Source: an uncultured delta proteobacterium (lineage in GTDB: Bacteria; Desulfobacterota; Binatia; DP-6). Taken from it: 64,000 nt of DNA. Positions 46,552-57,683 of the stretch are shown in pieces. The stretch spans positions 1,312,001 through 1,376,000 of the forward strand of contig CAWFFN010000009.1 in NCBI GenBank assembly GCA_963815115.1, read 5' to 3'. Both the position numbers and the translations under genes were made by a program. The notes under the pieces are model-generated. The model was not told the DNA's origin. It saw nothing but the letters and a program-made list of their open reading frames with translations, and ran no database searches. Numbering within the stretch: the stretch's first letter is position 1; every line of letters begins with the position of its first letter.

Positions 46552-47703
46552 GTGATCAAGTCGTATCTTCTCGCCCCCGGACCCACGCCGGTCCCGCCCG
46601 AGGTGCTGGCAGCGATGTCGCTGCCCCTCATCCACCATCGCACGCCGCAGTTCGCCGCCGTGCTGGGGGAGGTCCAGGAGGGGCTGCGGGAGCTCTTCGG
46701 CACCAAGGAGGACGTGCTCATCCTCGCGGCATCCGGCACGGGTGCCATGGAAAGCGCGATCACCAACCTGTGCTCCCCCGGCGACGAGGTCATCTTCGTC
46801 AACGGCGGCAAGTTCGGCGAGCGCTGGGGAAAGCTCGCGAAGACGTTCGGGGTGGTGGCCCACGAGATCCCCGTCGAGTGGGGACGTGCGGTGCGGCCGG
46901 AGGCCGTCGCCGCGGCGCTCGAGGCGCACCCGAAGACGCGCGCCGTCTACGTGCAGGCGAGCGAGACGTCGACCTGCGTCCTGCACCCCGTGCCGGCGAT
47001 CGCGGAGATCACCCGCGATCGCGACGTGCTCCTGGTGGTCGACGGCATCACCGCCGTGGGCGCGGTCGACCTGCCGATGGACCGCCTCGGCATCGACGCG
47101 CTGGTCACCGGCTCGCAGAAGGGCCTCATGCTGCCGCCCGGTCTCGCCTTCATCGCACTCTCGGCGCGGGCATGGGCGGCGGCGCAGCGTGCGACGCTGC
47201 CGCGCTTCTACTTCGACCTCGCGCGCGAGCGGAAGGGCGTCGCGGAGCGCTCCACGGCATGGACGCCGGCGATCTCGCTCATCCAGGGGCTGCGCGTCGC
47301 GCTCGACATGATGCGCAGCGAGGGCCTGCCGAACGTCTATGCGCGGCACGACCGCCTGGCCCGCGCCACACGCGCCGGCGCGGCTGCGATCGGCCTCCGG
47401 CTGCTGGCGCCGGACGCGCCCAGCCCGGCGGGGACCGCGGTCTGCCTGCCCGACGGCGTCGACGGCAGCGGCATGTTCCGTTACCTGCGCGACCGGATGC
47501 GGGTCACCTTCGCCGGCGGTCAGGATCAGCTGAAGGGCAAGATCATCCGGGTCGCCCACCTGGGCTACGTCGGCAGCTTCGACATCGTCACCGGGCTCGC
47601 GGCGCTCGAGCTGGCGCTGCGTCAGTTCGGTGCGGCGGTCGAGCTCGGCCGGGGCGTCGGGGCCGCCGAGGCGATTCTCGGCGAGGGTCTCCCGCCCCGC
47701 TAG
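46552..47703 (+). CDS. Class V PLP aminotransferase (alanine/serine-glyoxylate family; probable phosphoserine aminotransferase role next to serA)
   Basis: PGPTPVP, HHRT, SGTGAME, ETST, GSQKGLMLPPGL. Confidence 0.9.
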   Translation: MIKSYLLAPGPTPVPPEVLAAMSLPLIHHRTPQFAAVLGEVQEGLRELFGTKEDVLILAASGTGAMESAITNLCSPGDEVIFVNGGKFGERWGKLAKTFGVVAHEIPVEWGRAVRPEAVAAALEAHPKTRAVYVQASETSTCVLHPVPAIAEITRDRDVLLVVDGITAVGAVDLPMDRLGIDALVTGSQKGLMLPPGLAFIALSARAWAAAQRATLPRFYFDLARERKGVAERSTAWTPAISLIQGLRVALDMMRSEGLPNVYARHDRLARATRAGAAAIGLRLLAPDAPSPAGTAVCLPDGVDGSGMFRYLRDRMRVTFAGGQDQLKGKIIRVAHLGYVGSFDIVTGLAALELALRQFGAAVELGRGVGAAEAILGEGLPPR

Positions 47704-47715
47704 GGCCGCGACGCC

Positions 47716-49317
47716 ATGGCCTATCGCGTCCTACTGAGCGACTCGCTCGGTCCCGAGGGGCTTGCGCGGCTGCGTGAGCGGTCCGACCTGGAGGTCGATG
47801 CCCGGCCGGGGCTCTCGCCGGCGGAGCTGTGCGAGGTCATCGGCGGCTATCACGCCCTCATCGTCCGCAGCGCCACCAAGGTCACGGCCGACGTCCTGGC
47901 GCGGGCGGACCAGCTGCGCGTGATCGGGCGCGCCGGCATCGGCGTCGACAACATCGACGTCGATGCCGCCACCACGCGCGGCATCGTGGTGATGAACACG
48001 CCCGGAGGCAGCAACGTCACCACCGCCGAGCACGCCATCGCCATGCTGCTCGCGCTGGCGCGCAACATCCCGCAGGCCGCCGCCGCGGTGCGCGCGGGCG
48101 AGTGGCCGCGCAGCACGTGGATCGGAACCGAGGTCTGCAACAAGGTGCTCGGCATCGTCGGCCTCGGCAACATCGGCCGCATCGTGGCCGAGCGCGCCGT
48201 GGGGCTGCGCATGAAGGTGATCGCCTACGATCCCTTCGTCACCGCGGAGGCCGCGGCCCGGCTGCGAGTGGAGCTGGTCTCCCTCGACGACCTCTTCCCG
48301 CGCGCCGACTTCATCACCATCCACACACCGCTCACGGCGGAGACGCGGGGCCTGGTCGGGGCCGGGTCCATCGCCCGCATGAAGCGAGGGGTGCGCATCA
48401 TCAACTGTGCCCGCGGCGGCATCGTCGACGAGAAGGCCCTGGCCGACGCCATTCGCTCGGGTCAGGTCGCCGGCGCCGCGCTCGACGTGTTCGAGCAGGA
48501 GCCGCCGCCGCCCGATCATCCCCTGCGGGCGCTCGACCACGTCATCGCGACCCCGCATCTGGGTGCCTCGACCGCCGAGGCGCAGGTCAACGTCGCCGTC
48601 GCGATCGCGCAGCAGGTGGCGGAGTTTCTCAGCAAGGGGACGATCAACAACGCGGTCAACGCGCCCTCGCTGTCGCCCGAGGTGCTGCAGGTCCTGCGTC
48701 CGTACCTGCGGCTGGCGGAGAAGCTCGGTGCGCTCGCCGCCCAGCTCGCGCCCGGCGTGCCCGAGGAGATCACGGTGCATACCACCGGCGAGGTCGCGGA
48801 GCGCGAGTTGACGGCGCTCTCCACCGCCGTGCTGCGCGGCCTGCTCGATCAGCTGATCGATCTCGACGTGAACTACAGCGTGAACTACGTGAATGCGCCG
48901 GCGATCGCCCGCGGGCGCGGCATCCGCGTCATCGAGTCTCGCGCCACGACGAGCAGCGGCTACGCCAACGCCATCGCGGTGGAGGCCAAGCGCGCGAGCG
49001 GCATGACCCGGGTCCAGGGCGCCGTCTTCGGCACCGACACCGTGCGGCTCACGCGCATCGACGACTTCCGGATGGAAGCCGTCCCGGAGGGTTACATCCT
49101 CATGCTGCACAATCGCGACGTGCCCGGCGTCGTCGGCCGCGTCGGCACGTTGCTCGGGGAGAGCCAGATCAACATCGCGGGCCTGGAGCTGGGCCGGGAG
49201 CGCATCGGGGGCATGGCGTTGTCGCTGTTCCACGTCGACGATCCCGTACCGGCCGAGGTGCTCGCCAAGGTGCGCACGCTGCCGCAGATCGTGGCGGCCG
49301 AGCTGCTCCGTCTCTGA
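47716..49317 (+). CDS. serA: D-3-phosphoglycerate dehydrogenase (with ASB and ACT domains)
   Basis: RAGIGVDN, TAEH, GLGNIG, NCARGG, TPHLGAST, NRDVPGVVG...INIA. Confidence 0.96.
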   Translation: MAYRVLLSDSLGPEGLARLRERSDLEVDARPGLSPAELCEVIGGYHALIVRSATKVTADVLARADQLRVIGRAGIGVDNIDVDAATTRGIVVMNTPGGSNVTTAEHAIAMLLALARNIPQAAAAVRAGEWPRSTWIGTEVCNKVLGIVGLGNIGRIVAERAVGLRMKVIAYDPFVTAEAAARLRVELVSLDDLFPRADFITIHTPLTAETRGLVGAGSIARMKRGVRIINCARGGIVDEKALADAIRSGQVAGAALDVFEQEPPPPDHPLRALDHVIATPHLGASTAEAQVNVAVAIAQQVAEFLSKGTINNAVNAPSLSPEVLQVLRPYLRLAEKLGALAAQLAPGVPEEITVHTTGEVAERELTALSTAVLRGLLDQLIDLDVNYSVNYVNAPAIARGRGIRVIESRATTSSGYANAIAVEAKRASGMTRVQGAVFGTDTVRLTRIDDFRMEAVPEGYILMLHNRDVPGVVGRVGTLLGESQINIAGLELGRERIGGMALSLFHVDDPVPAEVLAKVRTLPQIVAAELLRL

Positions 49318-49322
49318 TCGCC

Positions 49323-50612
49323 ATGGCTGCGACCGCCATCATGGGCACCCAGTGGGGTGACGAGGGCAAGGGAAAGGTCGTCGACCTGCTCGCCGCCCGC
49401 GCCGACATGGTCGTGCGCTACCACGGCGGCAACAACGCCGGACACACGCTGGTGGTGAACGGCGAGAAGACGGTCCTCAACCTGATCCCGTCGGGAGTGC
49501 TTCACCCCGGCAAGGTGTGCGTGCTGGGCGCCGGCATGGTGATCGACCCCGAGATCCTGGTGCGCGAGATCACCGGGCTGCGTGCCCGCGGCTACCTCGG
49601 CGAGGACCGCTGGCTGCGGGTGAGCGACCAGGCGCACCTCATCATGCCGTACCACCGGGCCATCGACCACGCCCGCGAGCGGCTGCGCGAGGCCGGTGCG
49701 ATCGGCACCACCGGGCGGGGCATCGGTCCCGCCTACGAGGACAAGATGGCCCGCACGGGCATCCGGGTGGGCGATCTCTTCGACGAGGACGGGTTCGCCG
49801 ACGCGCTGGCGCGCAACCTGCGCGAGAAGAACGGCTACCTGGAGGCCCTGCTGGGCGAGCCGCCCCTCGCCATCGAGGAGATCCTGGAGCAATACCGCGG
49901 CTATCGCGAGCAGCTGGCGCCCTTCATCGCCGACACCGGCGCCGAGGTACGCGCCGCGGTCGCGCGTGGTTCCCGCGTCCTCCTCGAGGGCGCGCAGGGG
50001 GCTCTCCTCGACGTCGATCACGGTACGTACCCGTTCGTCACCTCGTCGACCTGCGTGCCCGGCGGAGCCTCCGCGGGCGCCGGGCTGCCGCCGCGCATGA
50101 TCGGCCGCATCATCGGCATCGCCAAGGCGTACACGACGCGCGTCGGTGGCGGCCCGTTCCCCACCGAGCTGCGCGACGCACTCGGCCAGCGCCTGCGGGC
50201 CGACGGCGACGAGTACGGCGCGACCACCGGCCGGCCGCGGCGCTGCGGCTGGTTCGACGCCGTCGTCGTGCGGCACGCGGTGGCGCTCTCCGGGCTCGAC
50301 GCCCTCGCGCTCACCAAGCTCGACGTGCTCACCGGCATCGATCCCATCCGCATCTGCGTCGGGTACGAGATCGAGGGCAAACGCGTCGACCGCCCGCCGG
50401 CGACCCAGCGCGCCTGGGCGCTGGCGAAGCCGATCTACGAGGACGTCGCGGGCTGGCAGGACGATCTCGGGCACGCGCGCACGCTCGACGAGCTGCCGGC
50501 GGCGGCGCGGCGCTACATCGATCGGCTCTCGGCGGCGGTCGAGGCGCCGGTCGCGCTGGTGTCGGTCGGCGCGGCGCGCGAGGAGACGATCCGCCTCGGG
50601 GAGGTCTTCTGA
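49323..50612 (+). CDS. purA: Adenylosuccinate synthetase
   Basis: QWGDEGKGK, GGNNAGHT, GTTGRGIGP, TTGRPRRCGW. Confidence 0.98.
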   Translation: MAATAIMGTQWGDEGKGKVVDLLAARADMVVRYHGGNNAGHTLVVNGEKTVLNLIPSGVLHPGKVCVLGAGMVIDPEILVREITGLRARGYLGEDRWLRVSDQAHLIMPYHRAIDHARERLREAGAIGTTGRGIGPAYEDKMARTGIRVGDLFDEDGFADALARNLREKNGYLEALLGEPPLAIEEILEQYRGYREQLAPFIADTGAEVRAAVARGSRVLLEGAQGALLDVDHGTYPFVTSSTCVPGGASAGAGLPPRMIGRIIGIAKAYTTRVGGGPFPTELRDALGQRLRADGDEYGATTGRPRRCGWFDAVVVRHAVALSGLDALALTKLDVLTGIDPIRICVGYEIEGKRVDRPPATQRAWALAKPIYEDVAGWQDDLGHARTLDELPAAARRYIDRLSAAVEAPVALVSVGAAREETIRLGEVF

Positions 50613-50616
50613 GCCG

Positions 50617-51870
50617 TCACGCGCCGTCGTCCGGACCGGACCGCATCCCGGTGTAGACGGCGCGCAGGCGAAGCGGCGACGGGCGCTCGTACTCCTCGAG
50701 CGCGTGCGCGATCCATCCGGCGATACGGGCGAGTGCGAAGAGCAGCTCGCCCGTGCCGCGCGGCAGCTCGAGGACGTGGCCGAGCGCCGCGATCGCGAGA
50801 TCGACGTTGGGCTGGGGGAAGCGGCGCGCCCGGACGGCGGCGAGCAGGGCCTCGACGGCACGCAGGCGGGTCACGCGGGGCGCCGCCCGGCGCAGCAAGC
50901 GGAGCAGCAGCGCGGCGCGCGGATCGCCGTCGGGATAGAGCGGGTGGCCGAAACCGGGCAGGCGCTCGCCGCCACGCAGGGCGCGCTCGATGACCGGCGC
51001 GGGATCGTCGTGCTCGGCGACCTCGGCCAGCAGCGCCTCGGACGCGAGCGAGGCGGCTCCGTGCCACGCGCCTCCGAGGACGCCGAAGCCGGCGCCGAGC
51101 GCACCGTAGGGATCCGCCCGGTAGGCGGCGGCGATGCGAACGGCGAGGGTGGAGCCAGCGAGCTCGTGATCGGCGAGCAGCACGAGGGCAGCGTCGAGGA
51201 GGGCGACCTGCGCCGGCGCGGGCGGACGCGCGGTGAGGCGGCTCCAGAGGCGTGCGGCGAGAGTGTCCGTCGGCGGCCGGCGCCCGGAGGCCTCGCGGCG
51301 CGCCGGCAGGACCTCCACCAGCGTCACCAGGAGGCTCCGGGCCGCCCGCGCGACGGCGTCCCGGCGCAGGTCGTGGCGGAACGGGTCGGCGCTGGCGAGC
51401 GCGGCGGTGACCAGGCGGATTCGGTCGAAGGGGAGGGCGCGGCTCGGCAGCGCCCGCGCGACGGCGCGACCGAGCGCCACCTGCGCGGGATCGACCGGCC
51501 AGGACGGCTCGCCGTCGGGCAGCGTGCCCGTCCACAGCAGCTCGGCCACGCGCTCGAAGCTCGCGGTGCGCGCCAGCTCGCCCGCGGCGTGACCACGATA
51601 GGTATGGCCGCCGGGCTCGATCGACGTCACGGCGGACTCGATGCGCAGCTCCGGGCGCGACTGGCCGCTCGCACCACGTCCGCGCGACGCGAGCCGGTCG
51701 ACCGCGGCGGGGTCGAACCAGCTGCCGCGATGCCCGGGACGCTGCTGGCGCACGAGCCGGCCACGGCTGACGTAGGCATACAGGGTCGCCGGCTTCACGC
51801 CGAGCGCGGCCGCCGTCTCCCGCGCGTTCAGCAGCCGGCGCTGCTCGTCGTCACGCCGGGCTGCCTTCAT
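50617..51870 (-). CDS. Citrate synthase-family protein with an N-terminal MerR/excisionase-like HTH
   Basis: LNARETAAALGVKPATLYAYVSRG; DHELAGST, WHGAAS, PGFGHPLY, PNVD, ARIAGWIAH. Confidence 0.88.
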   Translation of the reverse strand: MKAARRDDEQRRLLNARETAAALGVKPATLYAYVSRGRLVRQQRPGHRGSWFDPAAVDRLASRGRGASGQSRPELRIESAVTSIEPGGHTYRGHAAGELARTASFERVAELLWTGTLPDGEPSWPVDPAQVALGRAVARALPSRALPFDRIRLVTAALASADPFRHDLRRDAVARAARSLLVTLVEVLPARREASGRRPPTDTLAARLWSRLTARPPAPAQVALLDAALVLLADHELAGSTLAVRIAAAYRADPYGALGAGFGVLGGAWHGAASLASEALLAEVAEHDDPAPVIERALRGGERLPGFGHPLYPDGDPRAALLLRLLRRAAPRVTRLRAVEALLAAVRARRFPQPNVDLAIAALGHVLELPRGTGELLFALARIAGWIAHALEEYERPSPLRLRAVYTGMRSGPDDGA

Positions 51871-51916
51871 ATTGATTGCCACTCAATCTTGATCAACCTC
51901 ACGATCTGATCAATAT
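51869..51916. promoter_or_regulatory. Nested palindromic operator and overlapping divergent promoters between the two citrate synthase genes
   Basis: ATATTGAT(51869)...ATCAATAT(51916); ATTGA-N7-TCAAT (51871-51887); TTGATCAA (51889-51896); TGATCA (51907-51912). Confidence 0.7.
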
Positions 51917-51941
51917 CAGGAGCGACAGGAGGACGACAACC

Positions 51942-53441
51942 ATGGAGCTGCACCTGGCGGACCTGATGAATCCCACCCCTCTCACGGCGGCGCCGGCCGA
52001 CTCGCTCGCCGCGGCCGCGCACGCGATGCGGGCGCGGGACGTGAGCTCGGCGATCGTCGTGCGGGAGGGTGCCGTGGTCGGCATCCTGACCGAGCGCGAC
52101 CTCGCCCGTGCCTGCGCCGCCGGTGCGCCGGCCGCCGAGGCGCCGGTGGCGACCTGGATGACGCCAGAGCCGGTCACCATGGAGCCCGGCTGCGAGATCA
52201 CGGTCGCCCTCGAGCGCATGCTGGAGCGCAACGTGCGCCACCTGCCGGTATGCGAGAACGGCCGGCTCGCGGGCACCGTCTCGCTCCGCCAGCTCGTGCG
52301 GGCCGCCAGCCTGCGCCGGGTCGACCCGTGGACGCCCGGGACCGCTCGCGGGCTCGAGAACGTCACCGTCGCCGAGACCCGCCTGTCGCTCATCGACGCC
52401 ACCGGCGGACACCTGATCTACGCCGGCCACGACGCCGTGCGGCTCGCGGGCGAGCGCTCGTTCGAGGACGTCTGGCACCTGCTGCTGCACGACGAGCTGC
52501 CGGCCGACGACGGCTTCGCCAGCCGCCTGTGCACGCTGCGCGAGCTGCCCCTGCCCGCGTCCACCCTGCGCGCGCTCGCGAGCGCCGACGGTGCCATGAT
52601 GTCGAAGCTCGAGGCCGCGATGGCGGCCACGGGCGCCGCGCGGGGGCTCGGACCCTGGTACGAGCGCGAGCCGTCCCAGATCGAGGAGGAGGCGGTGCGC
52701 CTCGCGGCCGTCGTGCCGTCGCTGGTGGCTGCGCTCTGGCGCCTGGGTCGGGGCCTCGACCCGGTGCCGTCCGATCCATCCCTCGGTCACGTCGCGAACT
52801 ACCTCTGGATGCTGAACGGCCGCCGGCCGAGCCCGGCGCAGGTCACCGCGGCGCAGCGCTACCTGATCCTCACCGCCGAGCACGGCATGAACGCGTCCAC
52901 CTTCACGGCCCGCGTCATCGCCTCGACGGGGGCCGATGTCGCGGCCGCGCTCGTCGGCGCCGCGGGCGCGCTCTCCGGCCCGCTCCACGGCGGCTCCCCG
53001 TCGCTCGTCCTGGACATGCTGGACGAGATCGGCACGGCGGAGCGTGCCCGCCCGTGGATCGCGGATGCCATCCGCCGCCGCCGGCGCCTGATGGGATTCG
53101 GCCATCGCGTCTACCGCACGGAGGACCCGCGCGCGGCGTGTCTGCGAGCGACGGCGGAGGAGGTGGGAGCGAGCCGGCTCGCCCTCGCGCGTGCGGTCGA
53201 GACGGAGGCACTCGAGCAGCTGCGGGTGGCCAAGCCGGACCGTGTGCTGGCGACCAACGTCGAGTTCTGGGCTGCGGTGACGCTCGAGGCGGCCGGGCTG
53301 CCCCGCGAGCTGTTCACCCCGACGTTCGCGATCGCGCGCACCGCCGGCTGGACGGCGCACCTCCTCGAGCAGGTCCGCGACAACCGCCTGATCCGGCCGG
53401 CCGCGGCCTACGTGGGGCGGACGGAGCGGCCGGCGCCGTAG
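51942..53441 (+). CDS. Citrate synthase with an N-terminal CBS-domain pair
   Basis: CBS: GILTERDL, WMTPEPVT, RHLPV; citrate synthase: GLENV, EHGMNAST, GPLHGG, GFGHRVY, DPR, NVEFW; RBS AGGAGG. Confidence 0.9.
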   Translation: MELHLADLMNPTPLTAAPADSLAAAAHAMRARDVSSAIVVREGAVVGILTERDLARACAAGAPAAEAPVATWMTPEPVTMEPGCEITVALERMLERNVRHLPVCENGRLAGTVSLRQLVRAASLRRVDPWTPGTARGLENVTVAETRLSLIDATGGHLIYAGHDAVRLAGERSFEDVWHLLLHDELPADDGFASRLCTLRELPLPASTLRALASADGAMMSKLEAAMAATGAARGLGPWYEREPSQIEEEAVRLAAVVPSLVAALWRLGRGLDPVPSDPSLGHVANYLWMLNGRRPSPAQVTAAQRYLILTAEHGMNASTFTARVIASTGADVAAALVGAAGALSGPLHGGSPSLVLDMLDEIGTAERARPWIADAIRRRRRLMGFGHRVYRTEDPRAACLRATAEEVGASRLALARAVETEALEQLRVAKPDRVLATNVEFWAAVTLEAAGLPRELFTPTFAIARTAGWTAHLLEQVRDNRLIRPAAAYVGRTERPAP

Positions 53442-53496: not shown

Positions 53497-54150
53497 CTAG
53501 GTGAGTCGCTGGTGGCGCGGGTCGCCGGCGGGGGTGCGCCTTGCGATGTCGCGCGCATCCCACGCACGTCCGATCTGGCGCATGAGCGCCGGGTAGACGA
53601 TGAGGTGCCGGAAGGGCTCGATGAGCTTCAGGTAAGCGTCGCCAAGCCAGCCGCGGGGCTTCACGTAGACGCCCATCTGCGCACGATAACGGCCATCGCC
53701 GTCCTCGACCCATCCGAGGTGAAGAACGCCATGCACGGTGTCGTTTGAGATCTCGGCAGCCCACTCGTCGTCGGTCCGGTACAGGGGAACAAAGCCGCCG
53801 GCGGCTCGCCGCATCGTCCTGCCGATGAGGGGACCGTTCGCGCTACCTCGAAGGCGATCGGAAAGGCGTGCGGCGAGCGTCGTCTCGCTGCACCCCGGGA
53901 TCGGACGCTGCTTCGTCGCATCGTCCCACCCGAGCCAGTCTCCCAGGCGAAGTCGCACCCAGAAGAGCGCGCTGCTCACCGTTGACCCTGCGTCGGCGGG
54001 ATCGATGGAGGCCATCGCCTCGAGGAAGGAGTGGAAGTCGTGCAGGCCCCCTTGGACCGGCAGCGCCCAGACGTCGAGCAGCTTGAAGTCGGGGGCGATC
54101 TCGCGGATCACCCAGGGACGCGCTTCGTGGGCGGAGTTTGGCAGCCTCAT
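53497..54150 (-). CDS. DUF2867-like protein
   Basis: PWVIREIAPDFKLLDVWALP, EWAAEISNDTVHG, VYVKPRG, PFRHLIVYP. Confidence 0.7.
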   Translation of the reverse strand: MRLPNSAHEARPWVIREIAPDFKLLDVWALPVQGGLHDFHSFLEAMASIDPADAGSTVSSALFWVRLRLGDWLGWDDATKQRPIPGCSETTLAARLSDRLRGSANGPLIGRTMRRAAGGFVPLYRTDDEWAAEISNDTVHGVLHLGWVEDGDGRYRAQMGVYVKPRGWLGDAYLKLIEPFRHLIVYPALMRQIGRAWDARDIARRTPAGDPRHQRLT

Positions 54151-54626
54151 GCGGCAATACCCTTCGCAGAGATGACCTTCGCCGCGTGGCGCAACAGACC
54201 GGGCATCGCCTGGCGATGGCCGACGGACAGCGGTGGCCAGACGAGTGCCGCCACCGGCCGGTCGTACCGGATGAACGTGGCGACGGAGACCTGCTCGTCG
54301 CCGACCTGGAAGGCGATCTGGGCGGTCAGGAACCACGAGGCGGCCTCGAGCACGATCCAGCTGCCGCCGCGATCGACGATCTTCCACCCGGCCACGTGGT
54401 CCCGCGAAGGCCGCCGCTCGAGACGCAAGCCGAGGAGCACGCGCCAGACGAACTGTCCCGCGAGCCCGGCGGCGTCATCGACCCCAGCACGGGCCCACTC
54501 CTCCGGTGACTTGTCTGCGGCAGCACCCGGCGTGAGCGTGAAGAGGTCGGCGTAGTCCTGTTTCGCCAGGGTGCTGAGGGAGCGAATCGTCTCCGGGACG
54601 TAGCCCTGCTCGAGAACCGTCGTCAT
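54147..54626 (-). CDS. Hypothetical protein, DUF2867-like
   Basis: DYADLF, SPEEWAR, LVWPPLSVGHR; RBS AAGGAGG; overlaps the next gene start (ATGA). Confidence 0.65.
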   Translation of the reverse strand: MTTVLEQGYVPETIRSLSTLAKQDYADLFTLTPGAAADKSPEEWARAGVDDAAGLAGQFVWRVLLGLRLERRPSRDHVAGWKIVDRGGSWIVLEAASWFLTAQIAFQVGDEQVSVATFIRYDRPVAALVWPPLSVGHRQAMPGLLRHAAKVISAKGIAA

Positions 54627-54660
54627 GCGTGGCCTCCTTGGCTGTACATCACGAAGATTC

Positions 54661-54689
54661 AGGATATACTGAACACTCAGAATTGTCCA
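54661..54689 (-). promoter_or_regulatory. Promoter with a TetR-like operator in the spacer
   Basis: Minus strand TGGACA-N17-TATCCT; the spacer carries the inverted repeat ATTCTGA-gtgt-TCAGTAT. Confidence 0.6.
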
Positions 54690-55067
54690 GGAGGCGGCAG
54701 GGGATGGGATCGGGCATCCTGACCCGGCACGCCGCGTCACGAGGGGAGCGGTTCGGGGCGCTCCGCGAGGGACGGGGCCACGCGAGGCATCGACCGAGAG
54801 CGAATGGGTCGCGCGGGCGCTGGAAGCGCTCTAGTGCCTCCGGGCGCGACATGCAGCTTCGTGGTAGACCAGCCGCAACGATGTGAGATCCCGCCCGTTG
54901 GCAGCTGGCCGCGCATCCAGGTTCGCAGCATAGTGCGCTGACGTTGCAAGAAGCCGACCTGCAAGACCTCTTACTTGACACAAGCGTCGCCTCGGCCCGT
55001 ACTCGGCCATGCCGGAGGAACAGCCGCTCCAGCGGCCAGCGCCGGCAACGTGGGACAGGAGGCGCCC

Positions 55068-57683
55068 GTGCAGTCGATGCGGTCGATGCAGGGGGATGGT
55101 GTCCGTCGCGTCAGGGTGGCGCTTCTTTCTGCGGCGTTGCTCGGGAGCCGCCTGGCCGCGGCCCAGCCCCTCTGGATGCCGCCGCCCGAACCCGTGGTCC
55201 CGCCACAGATTCCGGCGACCAGCGAGCGCGACCGCGACGGGAACAGGATCGACGATGCGCTGGACGGAGAGCTGTCCGATCTGCATGCGGCACTCGGGAC
55301 CGCCACCGCCCCCGCGGTGGTCGCCGAGCTCGGTGCCCGGCTCACGGCGCCGGTCCGCATCGAGCTCGTGTTCTCCGGCCAGATCACCCAGCAGCAGATC
55401 GACAGCTTCCTCGCGCTCGGAGGCGAGATCGACCACGTCTACCTGGCGGTCAGCTACGGGTGGACGGGCCGTCTGGCGCGGTCCGCGCTGGAGTCGCTCC
55501 CCGGCGCGATGGGTTCGTCTCTGGTGCTGGTGGTCGGGGACCGGCCGGCGCGGCTCCACCTCGACGAGGCCACGCGCACCGGGCGCGCGCGGCCGGTATG
55601 GGCGAGCGGTTTCGCCGGCAGCGCGTCGGGCTTCTCCGGCAGCAGCGACGTCACGATCGCCGTCCTCGACACGGGGGTCGACGACTCCCATGCCGACCTC
55701 GCGGGGAGAATGGAGTTCTGGAAGGACTACACGGTGGACCTCGAGCCCGCGCCGCGTGACATCCTGCAGCACGGCTCGCACGTGACCGGCATCGCGCTCG
55801 GGACCGGAGCGAGCTTCGGGCTCGGCCCGGGCCCGTTGACCTACACCGACAGCGGCGACCTGACGGGCATCCCGGCGGGCTACTTCCTTCCCAGCCTGGT
55901 CCACCTCCCCGCGGCGTCACTCACCTTCACGGAGAACGCGACCTGGCTGGGCGGGGGCTCGACGAACCTGTTCGGGGCGTTCCGGGCCAACGGAGGCGGC
56001 TCGGTCTTCTCCCTCTCACCGCCGACGTTCGGCTCGTCGGGCATCACCGAATCCAACACCTTCACTCCCTCCACCACCAATGGCTACACGACCGGCCTGG
56101 TGCAGAACGCGGGCTCCACCATCTCGCGCTACGCCATCGTCAACACCGTGACCAACTATCCGGCGGTCGGCGACGGGTTCGACGTGCTCCGCGGCGTGGC
56201 GCCCGGCTCGCGGTGGGCGGGGGCCAAGGTGTTCACGAACGCGGGCGGGGGATCGAATCTCGACGTCGGCGCCGCGATGGACGACATGGTGACGCAGCGT
56301 ATCGCCCACAACATCAAGGTCGCGAACATGAGCCTGGGCACCATCGGCGACCCGGGTCTCGACACGACCGAACGTGCGAAGGCCAACACCATGGTCGAGA
56401 ACGGGATCGTGCTCGTGGTGTCGGCCGGAAACGACGGTCCTGGCACGGCGGAAGACAACGTGGTCGACGATCCCGGGCGCGCGGCGCTCGTCGTCACCGT
56501 CGCCGCCAGCAATGACGTCAACGAGCTGACCAGCTACACCAGCAGCGGCTTCCTCTCGCCGGGCCCGGACGAGGATGACAAGCCCGACGTGATGGCGCCG
56601 GGAGGATCGAGCTTCTACTCGGCGATTCTCTCCGTCGACAGCAACGATGCCGACGCGGCGATGGCCGGTTTCGCCGACCGGGTGCCGAACGACTACTCCA
56701 GCATCATGGGGACCTCGATGGCGGCGCCGTTCGTCGCCGGCTCGGCGAGCCTGCTGATCGACGCGCTGGAACGGGCAGGGCTGACATGGAGCTTCACGTC
56801 GAGCGCGCACCCCTTGCTCGTCAAGATGCTGCTCTGTGCCTCCGCGACCGAGTCGAACGCGAACCGCGAAGCGGGAAGCGGCAGCGACCCCACCCTGGGC
56901 CGCGCCGCTGTCCCGAAGGACCGCTTCGAGGGCTACGGGCTCATCAACCCCGATGCCGCCATCGAAGCGGTGACCCTCACGTACGCCGGCGGTGTCCTGA
57001 GCGATTCCACCTCGGGAGGTCGATTCGACCGCCGTGCCTGGGGACGAAGGATGGCGCTGGCGGCGGGGGTGCCCGTCAGCCTCGTCCTGACCGTGTCGGC
57101 GACGGCCGACTACGACCTCTACCTCTATGGCGGCGTCCCGGAGAGCAAGGGCAACCCCGTCATCCTGGCGTCGAGCACGAGCGCGGGCCTCGACGTGGAC
57201 GAGACGATCGGCTTCACGCCCAGCGCGACCGGGACGGCGTACCTCTTCATCAAACGGGTTTCGGGAAGCGGCAGCTGGTCGCTGTCGAGCTCCGGCGTTG
57301 CGCCGACCTCCACCACGACGACCCCCGTCACGATGACCTCCACCACCACGACGCCCATCGCCACCACGACCACCACCACGGTTCCCTGCCTCACGCCACG
57401 CTGCCGCATGGCTGCGGCGTTCGAGGGACCTTCCTGCGCGGGTGAGCCGATTCCGCGGGAAATCCGCACCGGCGTCGATCGCGCGCTCGAGCAGGCCCAA
57501 GAAGCAAGCACGAGCCGGCCGAAGCGGGCGAGAAGCCTGGTGCGGAGGGCGCGTCGCGTGCTGGAGGAGGCAGCCACTGCCGCCAAGCGGGCCGCGAAGG
57601 GCAAGCGGCCGAAGCTGTCGCCCACCTGCGCGAGCGTGCTCGCCGCCGCGGCCAGGGAGGTGCGCGGCGAGCTTACGCCCTGA
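55068..57683 (+). CDS. Secreted S8 (subtilisin-like) serine peptidase with PPC-like domain, Thr-rich linker and basic helical C-terminal domain
   Basis: Signal peptide; catalytic triad motifs VLDTGVD, HGSHVTG, GTSMAAP; oxyanion SAGN; ADYDLYLY; RBS AGGAGG before the GTG. Confidence 0.9.
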   Translation: MQSMRSMQGDGVRRVRVALLSAALLGSRLAAAQPLWMPPPEPVVPPQIPATSERDRDGNRIDDALDGELSDLHAALGTATAPAVVAELGARLTAPVRIELVFSGQITQQQIDSFLALGGEIDHVYLAVSYGWTGRLARSALESLPGAMGSSLVLVVGDRPARLHLDEATRTGRARPVWASGFAGSASGFSGSSDVTIAVLDTGVDDSHADLAGRMEFWKDYTVDLEPAPRDILQHGSHVTGIALGTGASFGLGPGPLTYTDSGDLTGIPAGYFLPSLVHLPAASLTFTENATWLGGGSTNLFGAFRANGGGSVFSLSPPTFGSSGITESNTFTPSTTNGYTTGLVQNAGSTISRYAIVNTVTNYPAVGDGFDVLRGVAPGSRWAGAKVFTNAGGGSNLDVGAAMDDMVTQRIAHNIKVANMSLGTIGDPGLDTTERAKANTMVENGIVLVVSAGNDGPGTAEDNVVDDPGRAALVVTVAASNDVNELTSYTSSGFLSPGPDEDDKPDVMAPGGSSFYSAILSVDSNDADAAMAGFADRVPNDYSSIMGTSMAAPFVAGSASLLIDALERAGLTWSFTSSAHPLLVKMLLCASATESNANREAGSGSDPTLGRAAVPKDRFEGYGLINPDAAIEAVTLTYAGGVLSDSTSGGRFDRRAWGRRMALAAGVPVSLVLTVSATADYDLYLYGGVPESKGNPVILASSTSAGLDVDETIGFTPSATGTAYLFIKRVSGSGSWSLSSSGVAPTSTTTTPVTMTSTTTTPIATTTTTTVPCLTPRCRMAAAFEGPSCAGEPIPREIRTGVDRALEQAQEASTSRPKRARSLVRRARRVLEEAATAAKRAAKGKRPKLSPTCASVLAAAAREVRGELTP
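57306..57380 (+). repeat. Low-complexity ACC/ACG repeat encoding a Thr-rich linker
   Basis: Encodes TSTTTTPVTMTSTTTTPIATTTTTT. Confidence 0.8.

Follow-up and report, generated by a model that had tools for sequence, protein, structure and literature searches.

A helix-turn-helix citrate synthase encoded opposite a CBS-citrate synthase: a candidate one-component regulator with a conserved inverted repeat

The gene of the minor citrate synthase (CS) of Bacillus subtilis, citA, is reportedly divergent from citR, the gene of a LysR-type regulator, in an arrangement said to have been described by Jin and Sonenshein in 1994. Here we describe a comparable pair of genes in a 64,000-nucleotide stretch of DNA from an uncultured delta proteobacterium of the class Binatia (the window; positions 1,312,001 to 1,376,000 of contig CAWFFN010000009.1, assembly GCA_963815115.1). 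One gene encodes a CS fold preceded by a helix-turn-helix (HTH) head and is called HTH-CS; the other, called CBS-CS, encodes a CS preceded by a pair of CBS domains. As in citR-citA, an auxiliary CitA-type CS with a Glu base (2c6x) stands opposite a putative dedicated regulator, and two relatives of the source organism have a LysR-type gene facing CBS-CS. The B. subtilis regulator is itself a LysR protein, whereas here the HTH is fused to a CS fold. The initial annotation of this DNA had described two CS homologs diverging across a 71-bp gap, and the open reading frames (ORFs) together with Pfam Citrate_synt matches in both products bear this out.

The MocR/GabR/PdxR regulators consist of an HTH joined to an entire aminotransferase fold, and PutA, BirA and NadR are known as trigger enzymes. 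HTH-CS would share with these proteins a whole, dimerizing, substrate-binding enzyme fold as effector and a partial relaxation of the catalytic residues. It differs from the MocR type, of which we claim no membership, in joining a MerR-type winged HTH to a CS fold, where the MocR type joins a GntR winged HTH to a pyridoxal phosphate fold. The head has its winged-HTH fold in common with BldC, RacA, phage Xis, CueR and SoxR. In the available excerpt of PMC7083601, CitA of Caulobacter crescentus is a CS whose control of the cell cycle does not depend on catalysis. Like HTH-CS it would be a CS fold serving regulation; unlike HTH-CS, the protein of that excerpt has no DNA-binding domain and acts by another route.

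In Streptomyces coelicolor, sco5831 (citA3) and sco5832 (citA4) are divergent 'citrate synthase' genes that share an intergenic MtrA site, TTGACTTAACTGTCCA, listed in the excerpted table of PMC12323332 at -16 and -92 from two transcription start sites. SCO5831 is annotated as 'citrate synthase-like protein' in the excerpts of PMC7324645 and PMC9739823. By all signs this pair is the actinobacterial counterpart of the one described here, with SCO5831 presumably equivalent to HTH-CS. The excerpted text of the Streptomyces papers treats both citA3 and citA4 as putative enzymes and mentions neither an HTH head nor the ATTGAT-N3-ATCAAT repeat discussed below. The Streptomyces partner has no CBS pair, unlike the CBS-CS of the window. 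Literature searches, which did not extend to supplements, turned up no study of an HTH-citrate synthase acting as a regulator, and none of a CBS-citrate synthase.

From the comparisons reported here we consider it probable that HTH-CS is a one-component transcription factor that senses through its CS body, binds the repeat with its HTH heads and controls both CBS-CS and itself. HTH-CS apparently represents a family of regulators that is real, conserved and not yet described, its general kind being known, and most likely is a metabolite-sensing switch for the divergent CS gene in many soil bacteria, Streptomyces included. In the proposed mechanism a dimer held together by the complete CS fold would carry two winged HTH heads on flexible Arg/Gly linkers, and these heads would bind the two arms of ATTGA-N7-TCAAT. 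The repeat ends 1 nt before the putative -35-like hexamer of CBS-CS and directly abuts the start of the HTH-CS gene, so that HTH-CS most likely controls the auxiliary CS and its own synthesis. The CS body would be the sensor, retaining in nearly every member the His and Arg residues for oxaloacetate or citrate binding, with catalysis being dispensable in about one third of the family. Two events, the binding of oxaloacetate or citrate (perhaps along with an acyl-coenzyme A, acyl-CoA) and the open-to-closed movement typical of CS, would shift the placement of the HTH heads and hence the affinity for DNA. The outcome would be that HTH-CS governs both itself and an auxiliary condensing enzyme. 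A CS-fold sensor controlling the divergent CS had been proposed in the initial annotation; the comparisons of partner, repeat and residues fit this proposal, and from them we infer the ligand sensing and the control.

We lean slightly towards a wider claim, that HTH-CS founds an unrecognized and widespread family of one-component regulators with an entire CS as effector. The cell would then gauge the substrates or product of the step that opens the TCA cycle by means of a copy of the enzyme that acts on them. In its boldest form only the closed ternary state, with oxaloacetate and acyl-CoA both bound, would switch DNA binding, and this AND gate would turn on another condensing enzyme, which could be a CitA-type CS or else an isopropylmalate (IPM)-synthase-like candidate Re-citrate synthase. 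Such a family would range over Streptomyces, other Actinomycetota, Binatia and Myxococcota, and metabolic models would until now have listed its members as the third or fourth 'citrate synthase' of an organism.

If the proposal is correct, the CS fold would be a new type of effector domain for bacterial one-component regulators, and HTH-CS would show plainly how an enzyme can become a sensor while remaining beside its enzymatic relative. Levels of oxaloacetate, acetyl-CoA and citrate would be linked directly to expression of an auxiliary CS, with consequences for the flow of carbon into the precursors of antibiotics in Streptomyces. The annotation of hundreds of genomes would be corrected, including that of the gene counted as a CS isoenzyme (citA3) in Streptomyces models and omics papers. 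Operator and regulator are compact, apparently with a single target, and could serve as a metabolite-responsive switch. The fused CBS pair suggests that allostery controls the same auxiliary CS at a second level.

Conservation of HTH-CS, its divergent partner and the inverted repeat

Loci were collected by a species scan with tblastn confirmation, using one representative genome per species, and the counts of partners and repeats refer to the best 80. The scan confirmed at least 584 HTH-CS loci, and the best 80 came from Streptomyces, many other Actinomycetota, Acidimicrobiia, Terriglobales, Polyangiaceae and a 'Deltaproteobacteria' metagenome-assembled genome (MAG). A phmmer search against 1.8 billion cluster representatives (50% identity) gave at least 150 HTH-CS clusters, with E <= 6e-64 for all of the best 150; 138 of these had a length of 380-470 residues and nearly all were aligned from about residue 10 to 410. 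The closest named homologs among the matches listed were from Candidatus Binatia and Myxococcales MAGs, and where the sources gave a name to the homologs it was 'citrate synthase' only. Both head and body were matched in 8 of 41 class-level relatives (G000, G001, where the gene is split over two frames, G003, G004, G032, G033, G038 and G039).

At 56 of the 80 loci a CitA-like CS gene was located directly upstream on the opposite strand, a count whose members are not independent, as most of the 80 loci are from Streptomyces, which weakens the case for a regulator. The same conserved-partner pattern was found in the class-level relatives G033, G038 and G039. A homocitrate/IPM-synthase-like gene faced HTH-CS at 11 of the other 24 loci: nine copies were adjacent and shared 78% identity or more with the one at locus L014, one was a distant adjacent homolog and one lay at 1.9 kb. 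The remaining 13 of the 80 loci had neither type of partner.

For the analysis of the gap, 88 upstream regions of 300 nt were compared, taken from the 80 loci, the window and 7 relatives. The motif RTTGA-N3-9-TCAAY was present in 74 of them and in none of 80 coding controls, with 0.3 predicted from shuffles, and the conserved TTGAT-ATCAA motif that the initial annotation expected upstream of HTH-CS homologs was thereby recovered. In the 64-kb window, ATTGA-N5-9-TCAAT occurred once, versus 0.02 times expected from shuffles. The whole genome contains 13 RTTGA-N5-8-TCAAY sites, and the gap site is the only one with the arms ATTGA and TCAAT; a search for a regulon found no second ATTGA...TCAAT site in the organism's own genome. 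Five actinobacterial genomes of 8-12 Mb had 1, 2, 1, 3 and 0 strict sites, with the site at the HTH-CS locus included in all four genomes that gave matches. The three extra sites, in two of these genomes, had no CS, HTH-CS or IPM-synthase homolog beside them and no N-TTGAY flank, and for these reasons they were taken as chance occurrences.

The spacer of the repeat varied with lineage, from N5 in Streptomyces (ATTGAT-N3-ATCAAT) and N6 in many other actinomycetes to N7-8 in the class of the window. Among the four members of the genus, ATTGAT, TCAATCTTGATCAA, ATCAATAT and the ATG start were invariant, with variation in the repeat spacer and in the promoter spacer. Four Streptomyces loci without a divergent CS (L060, L062, L064 and L065) still had the repeat upstream of HTH-CS, which fits autoregulation. 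It was found at none of ten CS genes that do not lie beside HTH-CS, comprising three CBS-CS orthologs of 65-66% identity (G007, G015 and G019, genomes in which no HTH-CS was found) and seven other CS genes. In two of these three relatives a LysR-type regulator gene is located opposite CBS-CS, being divergent from it in G019 and facing a GNAT-CBS-CS gene pair in G007, and on that account the position of HTH-CS appears to be the place of a regulator. These sequence comparisons support the view that, from one phylum to another, members of the HTH-CS family occur together with the divergent CS partner and with the TTGAT/ATCAA repeat.

The HTH head and the CS body

An N-terminal HTH of the MerR/excisionase type had been read from the sequence of HTH-CS, and the fold comparisons, in which Xis was among the matches, upheld this assignment. 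An AlphaFold2 (AF2) model of residues 14-75, built from 30 sequences, had a predicted local distance difference test (pLDDT) score of 82. In a Foldseek search the N-terminal 62-residue model matched RacA, mycobacteriophage Xis, BldC, CueR, SoxR, CadR and MtaN with template modeling (TM) scores of 0.6-0.7 and a probability of about 1. Among the 120 best homologs listed, 88 have PF12728, PF13411 or PF00376 ahead of PF00285. Since the fold matches the RacA/Xis/BldC/CueR/SoxR class and homologs carry a Pfam HTH, the modeled head is a MerR-superfamily winged HTH. Residue conservation was counted over 139 HTH-CS family sequences, 81 close relatives and 52 partner CS sequences. The recognition helix, TLYAYVSRG, was nearly invariant, with Y31, Y33 and R36 each found in 138 of the 139 family members.

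Apart from the winged HTH, the protein does not follow the plan of MerR-superfamily regulators. In place of their coiled-coil dimerization helix and C-terminal effector it has a linker followed by the CS fold, through which dimerization is predicted to occur. The MerR operator lies inside a -35/-10 spacer of 19-20 bp, whereas the repeat described here lies upstream of the -35-like hexamer, and the spacer that we infer is 16 nt. The full-length AF2 model had a pLDDT of 93.1 and a predicted TM score of 0.85, with only the linker less certain (pLDDT 65-83 for residues 61-80), and the length of the linker differed between sequences in two alignments.

The CS body (PF00285, 1.4e-58, 199 bits, residues 77-396) has the fold of a CS enzyme. 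The WHG, GFGH and NVD motifs noted in the initial annotation are present, and alignment to solved CS structures placed the His/His/Asp triad at H270, H309 and D357. We take the counterparts in pig CS to be H238 for H235, H274 for H270, H320 for H309, R329 for R318, D375 for D357, R401 for R382 and R421 for R401/R403. The top Foldseek matches of the body were methylcitrate and citrate synthases (PrpC/CS; E 1e-16, TM 0.65-0.70), and its best NCBIfam model was that of 2-methylcitrate/citrate synthase II (TIGR01800). These matches speak for the alternative that survives best, although we think it unlikely, namely that HTH-CS is first of all a working citrate/2-methylcitrate synthase with conserved catalysis, a trigger enzyme whose HTH adjusts its own expression and that of its neighbor according to turnover. 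The complete triad of the window protein, shared by 76 of the 81 close relatives, also points in this direction and thus away from a dedicated sensor; none of the five relatives without the whole triad has a divergent CS. However, the TIGR01800 match reached 156 bits against a cut-off of 421, and none of the 21 NCBIfam matches of HTH-CS attained its curated enzyme cut-off. In the family as a whole the full triad was found in 90 of 139 members and at least one catalytic residue was missing in 49, while R318 never varied. The genome, moreover, already encodes a main CS in addition to CBS-CS.

A further argument against a working enzyme comes from the residue four positions after the catalytic His, which we presume to contact the 3'-phosphate of CoA by analogy with R324 of pig CS. 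This residue is P313 in the window protein, and in the family it is Pro in 69 and Arg in 32 of the 139 sequences. A basic residue was found here in 18 of the 81 close relatives versus Arg or Lys in 52 of 52 partner CS. The partners kept all carboxylate-binding and catalytic positions (52 of 52), and 51 of them have Glu in place of the Asp. The residue pattern of HTH-CS suggests that oxaloacetate/citrate binding is kept, catalysis relaxed and CoA binding altered. HTH-CS fits a sensor because its carboxylate-binding residues are better conserved than its catalytic ones; the window protein may nevertheless have catalytic activity.

Homodimer prediction for HTH-CS gave a score of 0.80 versus 0.00 for the best of three controls, a level reached by 20 of 30 proteins whose solved structure is a pair of one chain and by 1 of 23 whose solved structure is a single chain. 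The score may simply reflect likeness to the CS dimers already solved. The runs shared at least 80% of contacts, with a partner pLDDT of at least 85. The predicted interface is CS-like and comprises residues 72-83, 133-166, 236-270 and 398-411. As it includes residues 72-83, just past the linker, both HTH heads would exit the body near the dimer contact.

Geometry of the putative divergent promoter region

In the window the order of elements is repeat, C, TTGATC, 16 nt, CAATAT, GGAGGA and ATG. The order in the class-level relative G039 is repeat, G, TTGACA, 16 nt and TACAAT. On the partner side, TTGAY occurred exactly 1 nt past the repeat at 72 of 74 loci, as TTGACA in 47, and N-TTGAY followed the repeat on the HTH-CS side at 5 of 74. 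The 16-nt spacer between TTGATC and CAATAT was constant in length and variable in sequence in the four genus members. The aligned columns of GGAGGA were only partly invariant in the genus, with an offset caused by a gap in G003.

The gap also contains 8-nt arms, ATATTGAT/ATCAATAT, and 10-nt arms, ATCTTGATCA/TGATCAATAT, and the initial annotation had read it as one nested palindromic operator. The ATTGA-N7-TCAAT repeat is real, but the gap does not consist of four operators: TTGATC and CAATAT fit a -35 and a -10 hexamer for CBS-CS. Given the fixed placement of TTGAY across loci, part of the nested palindrome is best read as the -35/-10 of the partner gene. The true repeat would then abut the -35-like hexamer, with its center at about -44. 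The MtrA-site distances tabulated in the excerpt of PMC12323332 agree with this promoter reading of the HTH-CS loci.

The layout of the gap bears on a second and very improbable alternative: that there is no operator, the palindromes being overlapping divergent promoters with mirrored hexamers (TTGATC, CAA[T/G]AT), and that the HTH serves nucleoid anchoring or protein contact. The arms ATCTTGATCA/TGATCAATAT are indeed readable as TTGATC-N16-CAATAT on the plus strand and TTGATC-N16-CAAGAT on the minus strand, TTGAY looks like both a half-site and a -35 box, and the fold relatives of the head include the chromosome anchor RacA and the protein-binding CbpM. The ATTGA...TCAAT repeat, however, lies outside these hexamers and upstream of the -35, and its arms stay conserved from phylum to phylum, the spacer being free. 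It accompanies HTH-CS with a CS partner, an IPM-synthase-like partner or neither, it is missing from all ten CS genes without HTH-CS, and it is unique or nearly so in each genome.

Besides the retained triad and the predominance of Streptomyces loci, several observations weigh against HTH-CS as a regulator acting through the repeat. A perfect repeat is missing in 14 of the 88 upstream regions. The arm spacing ranges from N4 to N9 among lineages, which is unusual for a rigid dimer, so that the flexible linker must absorb this variation. Some protein other than HTH-CS could bind the repeat. The HTH_17 match of HTH-CS (residues 13-46) scored 21.5 bits and did not reach the Pfam cut-off of 27, and the Foldseek E-values for the head are weak (0.01-0.3). 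The -35/-10 reading rests on conservation because a consensus scan of positions 51700-52100 called no sigma-70 promoter or terminator. None of the public sequencing runs listed as containing the source DNA was of RNA, and the runs held small DNA shares only.

In Streptomyces loci (e.g., L030, L037 and L040) the stretch that separates the repeat from the partner CS contains another conserved block, CTTGATTCGACTGTCCATGCTTGAC. This block is similar to the MtrA site in the literature and was present in degenerate form in 30 of the 88 regions; the exact S. coelicolor MtrA site was found at 0 of 92 loci. In the same loci the HTH-CS genes are preceded by a conserved GATACGGTG-N6-ATG, which suggests leaderless HTH-CS transcripts in Streptomyces.

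Partner enzymes and gene surroundings

CBS-CS carries the N-terminal CBS pair that had been noted initially, with 83 bits to Pfam CBS in two stretches that correspond to the two tandem CBS motifs of a Bateman module. Its CS domain matched Pfam Citrate_synt at 2.2e-105 and the CitA-type model NF009005 with 372.2 bits, above the curated cut-off of 332, and the active-site His, His and Glu and the substrate Arg residues are all present. This places CBS-CS in the same subfamily as CitA of Mycobacterium tuberculosis (6wgy, 8gmf) and B. subtilis (2c6x), with matches of 287 and 251 bits and an identical NVEF motif (2c6x, 8gmf). The NVE at the Asp position pointed out in the initial annotation is there but is no peculiarity, since Glu also occurs in B. 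subtilis CitA (2c6x) and M. tuberculosis CitA (8gmf, 6wgy) and is thus normal for the subfamily; it is found in 51 of the 52 partner CS as well. The solved CitA enzymes have no N-terminal CBS pair, unlike CBS-CS.

Among the loci examined, a CBS pair on the partner was found only in the genus of the window and at L011, L020 and L021. Most partners, including all those of Streptomyces, are without it, and judged by this distribution the CBS fusion is a lineage-specific add-on. It probably adds allosteric control of the CBS-CS enzyme, perhaps as a gate that responds to adenine nucleotides. A separate search of metagenomes and MAGs found about 72 clusters of CBS-CS fusions. Two longer fusions, P0342 (772 residues) and P0312 (542 residues), were seen; one has enoyl-CoA hydratase domains (PF00378, PF16113) and one is joined to major facilitator superfamily (MFS) transporter domains in a partial record.

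In an unrooted quick tree, 24 partners and 2 plain CS were set apart from all 35 HTH-CS bodies by a branch of length 1.3 with a support of 100; the main CS of the genome, an over-long ORF with a branch length of 3.3, could not be placed. In the same tree the CBS-fused partners occupied several basal branches of the partner clade, in which the Streptomyces partners lack the CBS pair, so that the pair would have been lost or gained more than once.

At the loci with an IPM-synthase-like partner the repeat and the -35-like hexamer are retained. The copies at L014 and at L006 (G039) scored below all curated cut-offs, for example 240 bits against 463 for nifV, and this partner could be a Re-type citrate synthase. 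The least probable of the alternatives, that HTH-CS acts mainly by protein contact, with mixed dimers tethering or titrating the neighboring CS and DNA binding being secondary, would draw on the CS dimer fold common to both proteins, on CS active sites being built from both subunits, on a predicted interface made of the helices canonical for CS dimers plus the R401/R403-bearing C-terminal arm, and on the co-inheritance of the two genes, but it is opposed by the 11 loci where the partner is an unrelated TIM-barrel synthase incapable of such a dimer and yet repeat and geometry are kept, and by the HTH-CS/partner identity of 31-33% and the long, fully supported branch between them.

Features of the locus in the window, family conservation of HTH-CS residues, and IPM-synthase-like partners
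Feature	Position	Strand	Basis or remark
HTH-CS gene	50617-51870	-	417 residues from ATG at 51870, stop codon included; ORF, Pfam, NCBIfam
Complete CS fold, residues 77-417	50620-51642	-	H235, H270, H309, R318, D357, R382, R401, R403 present
Arg/Gly-rich linker, residues 65-76	51643-51678	-	Lower pLDDT, variable length
MerR-superfamily winged HTH (modeled), residues 13-64	51679-51834	-	HTH_17, conservation, fold matches
Gap between HTH-CS and CBS-CS	51871-51941		71 bp
Inverted repeat ATTGA-N7-TCAAT, candidate HTH-CS operator	51871-51887		Arms invariant in genus, motif in 74 of 88 loci
TTGATC, -35-like hexamer for CBS-CS	51889-51894	+	1 nt past repeat; invariant in genus
CAATAT, putative -10-like hexamer	51911-51916	+	16 nt past TTGATC; ATCAATAT invariant in genus
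GGAGGA, ribosome-binding site of CBS-CS	51928-51933	+	Sequence; present in all 4 genus members
CBS-CS gene	51942-53441	+	499 residues, stop codon included; ORF, Pfam, NCBIfam
CBS pair, residues ~7-122	51960-52307	+	Pfam CBS 1.4e-23, 83.4 bits, 2 stretches
CitA-type CS domain, residues 137-487	52350-53402	+	His/His/Glu active site
R318, carboxylate binding			139 of 139 HTH-CS family sequences
R382, carboxylate binding			136 of 139 HTH-CS family sequences
H235, carboxylate binding			134 of 139 HTH-CS family sequences
H270, catalytic			119 of 139 HTH-CS family sequences
H309, catalytic			106 of 139 HTH-CS family sequences
D357, catalytic			D in 114 and E in 14 of 139 HTH-CS family sequences
IPM-synthase-like partners	L014:1643-2875(-), L016, L017, L024, L028, L038, L039, L042; L006:2-1375(-)

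The source genome has a size of 6.9 Mb and a G+C content of 70.4%. With an alternative in-frame GTG (51882) as start codon, the gap would measure 59 bp; the HTH-CS orthologs begin at the ATG-equivalent. The neighboring genes at 46552-50612 of the window are ordinary ones, encoding a class-V aminotransferase, SerA with an ACT domain and PurA. Between the end of the final sense codon of purA (50612) and the stop codon of HTH-CS, which begins at 50617, there are 4 nt, and purA also adjoins HTH-CS in G001, G003 and G004. On the other side, at 53497-57683, lie genes for a DUF2867 protein and a 902-residue S8 subtilase with a Thr-rich C-terminal stretch.

LysR/CBS-CS loci in genomes of the same family were located at L096:390-1292(-) and L011:3565-4017(+). 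In G007 the gene of the GNAT acetyltransferase is co-directional with CBS-CS, and its stop overlaps the CBS-CS start. At L004 (G001:C1:533407-534616) the HTH-CS ortholog occupies two reading frames with a break near residue 222, which is either a frameshift or an assembly error. L008 (G013:C105) contains, at approximately 1395-1890, remnants of both genes, namely the last ~130 residues of HTH-CS and the last ~43 of CBS-CS. The two remnants overlap head to head, which looks as though a single deletion had removed the 5' half of each gene along with the promoter region. A palindrome of the form AAGTTGACT(C/A)TGTCAACAT occurs in two near-identical copies outside the window in the genome G000, at C5:1074177 and C9:751344, and is probably the operator of another regulator.

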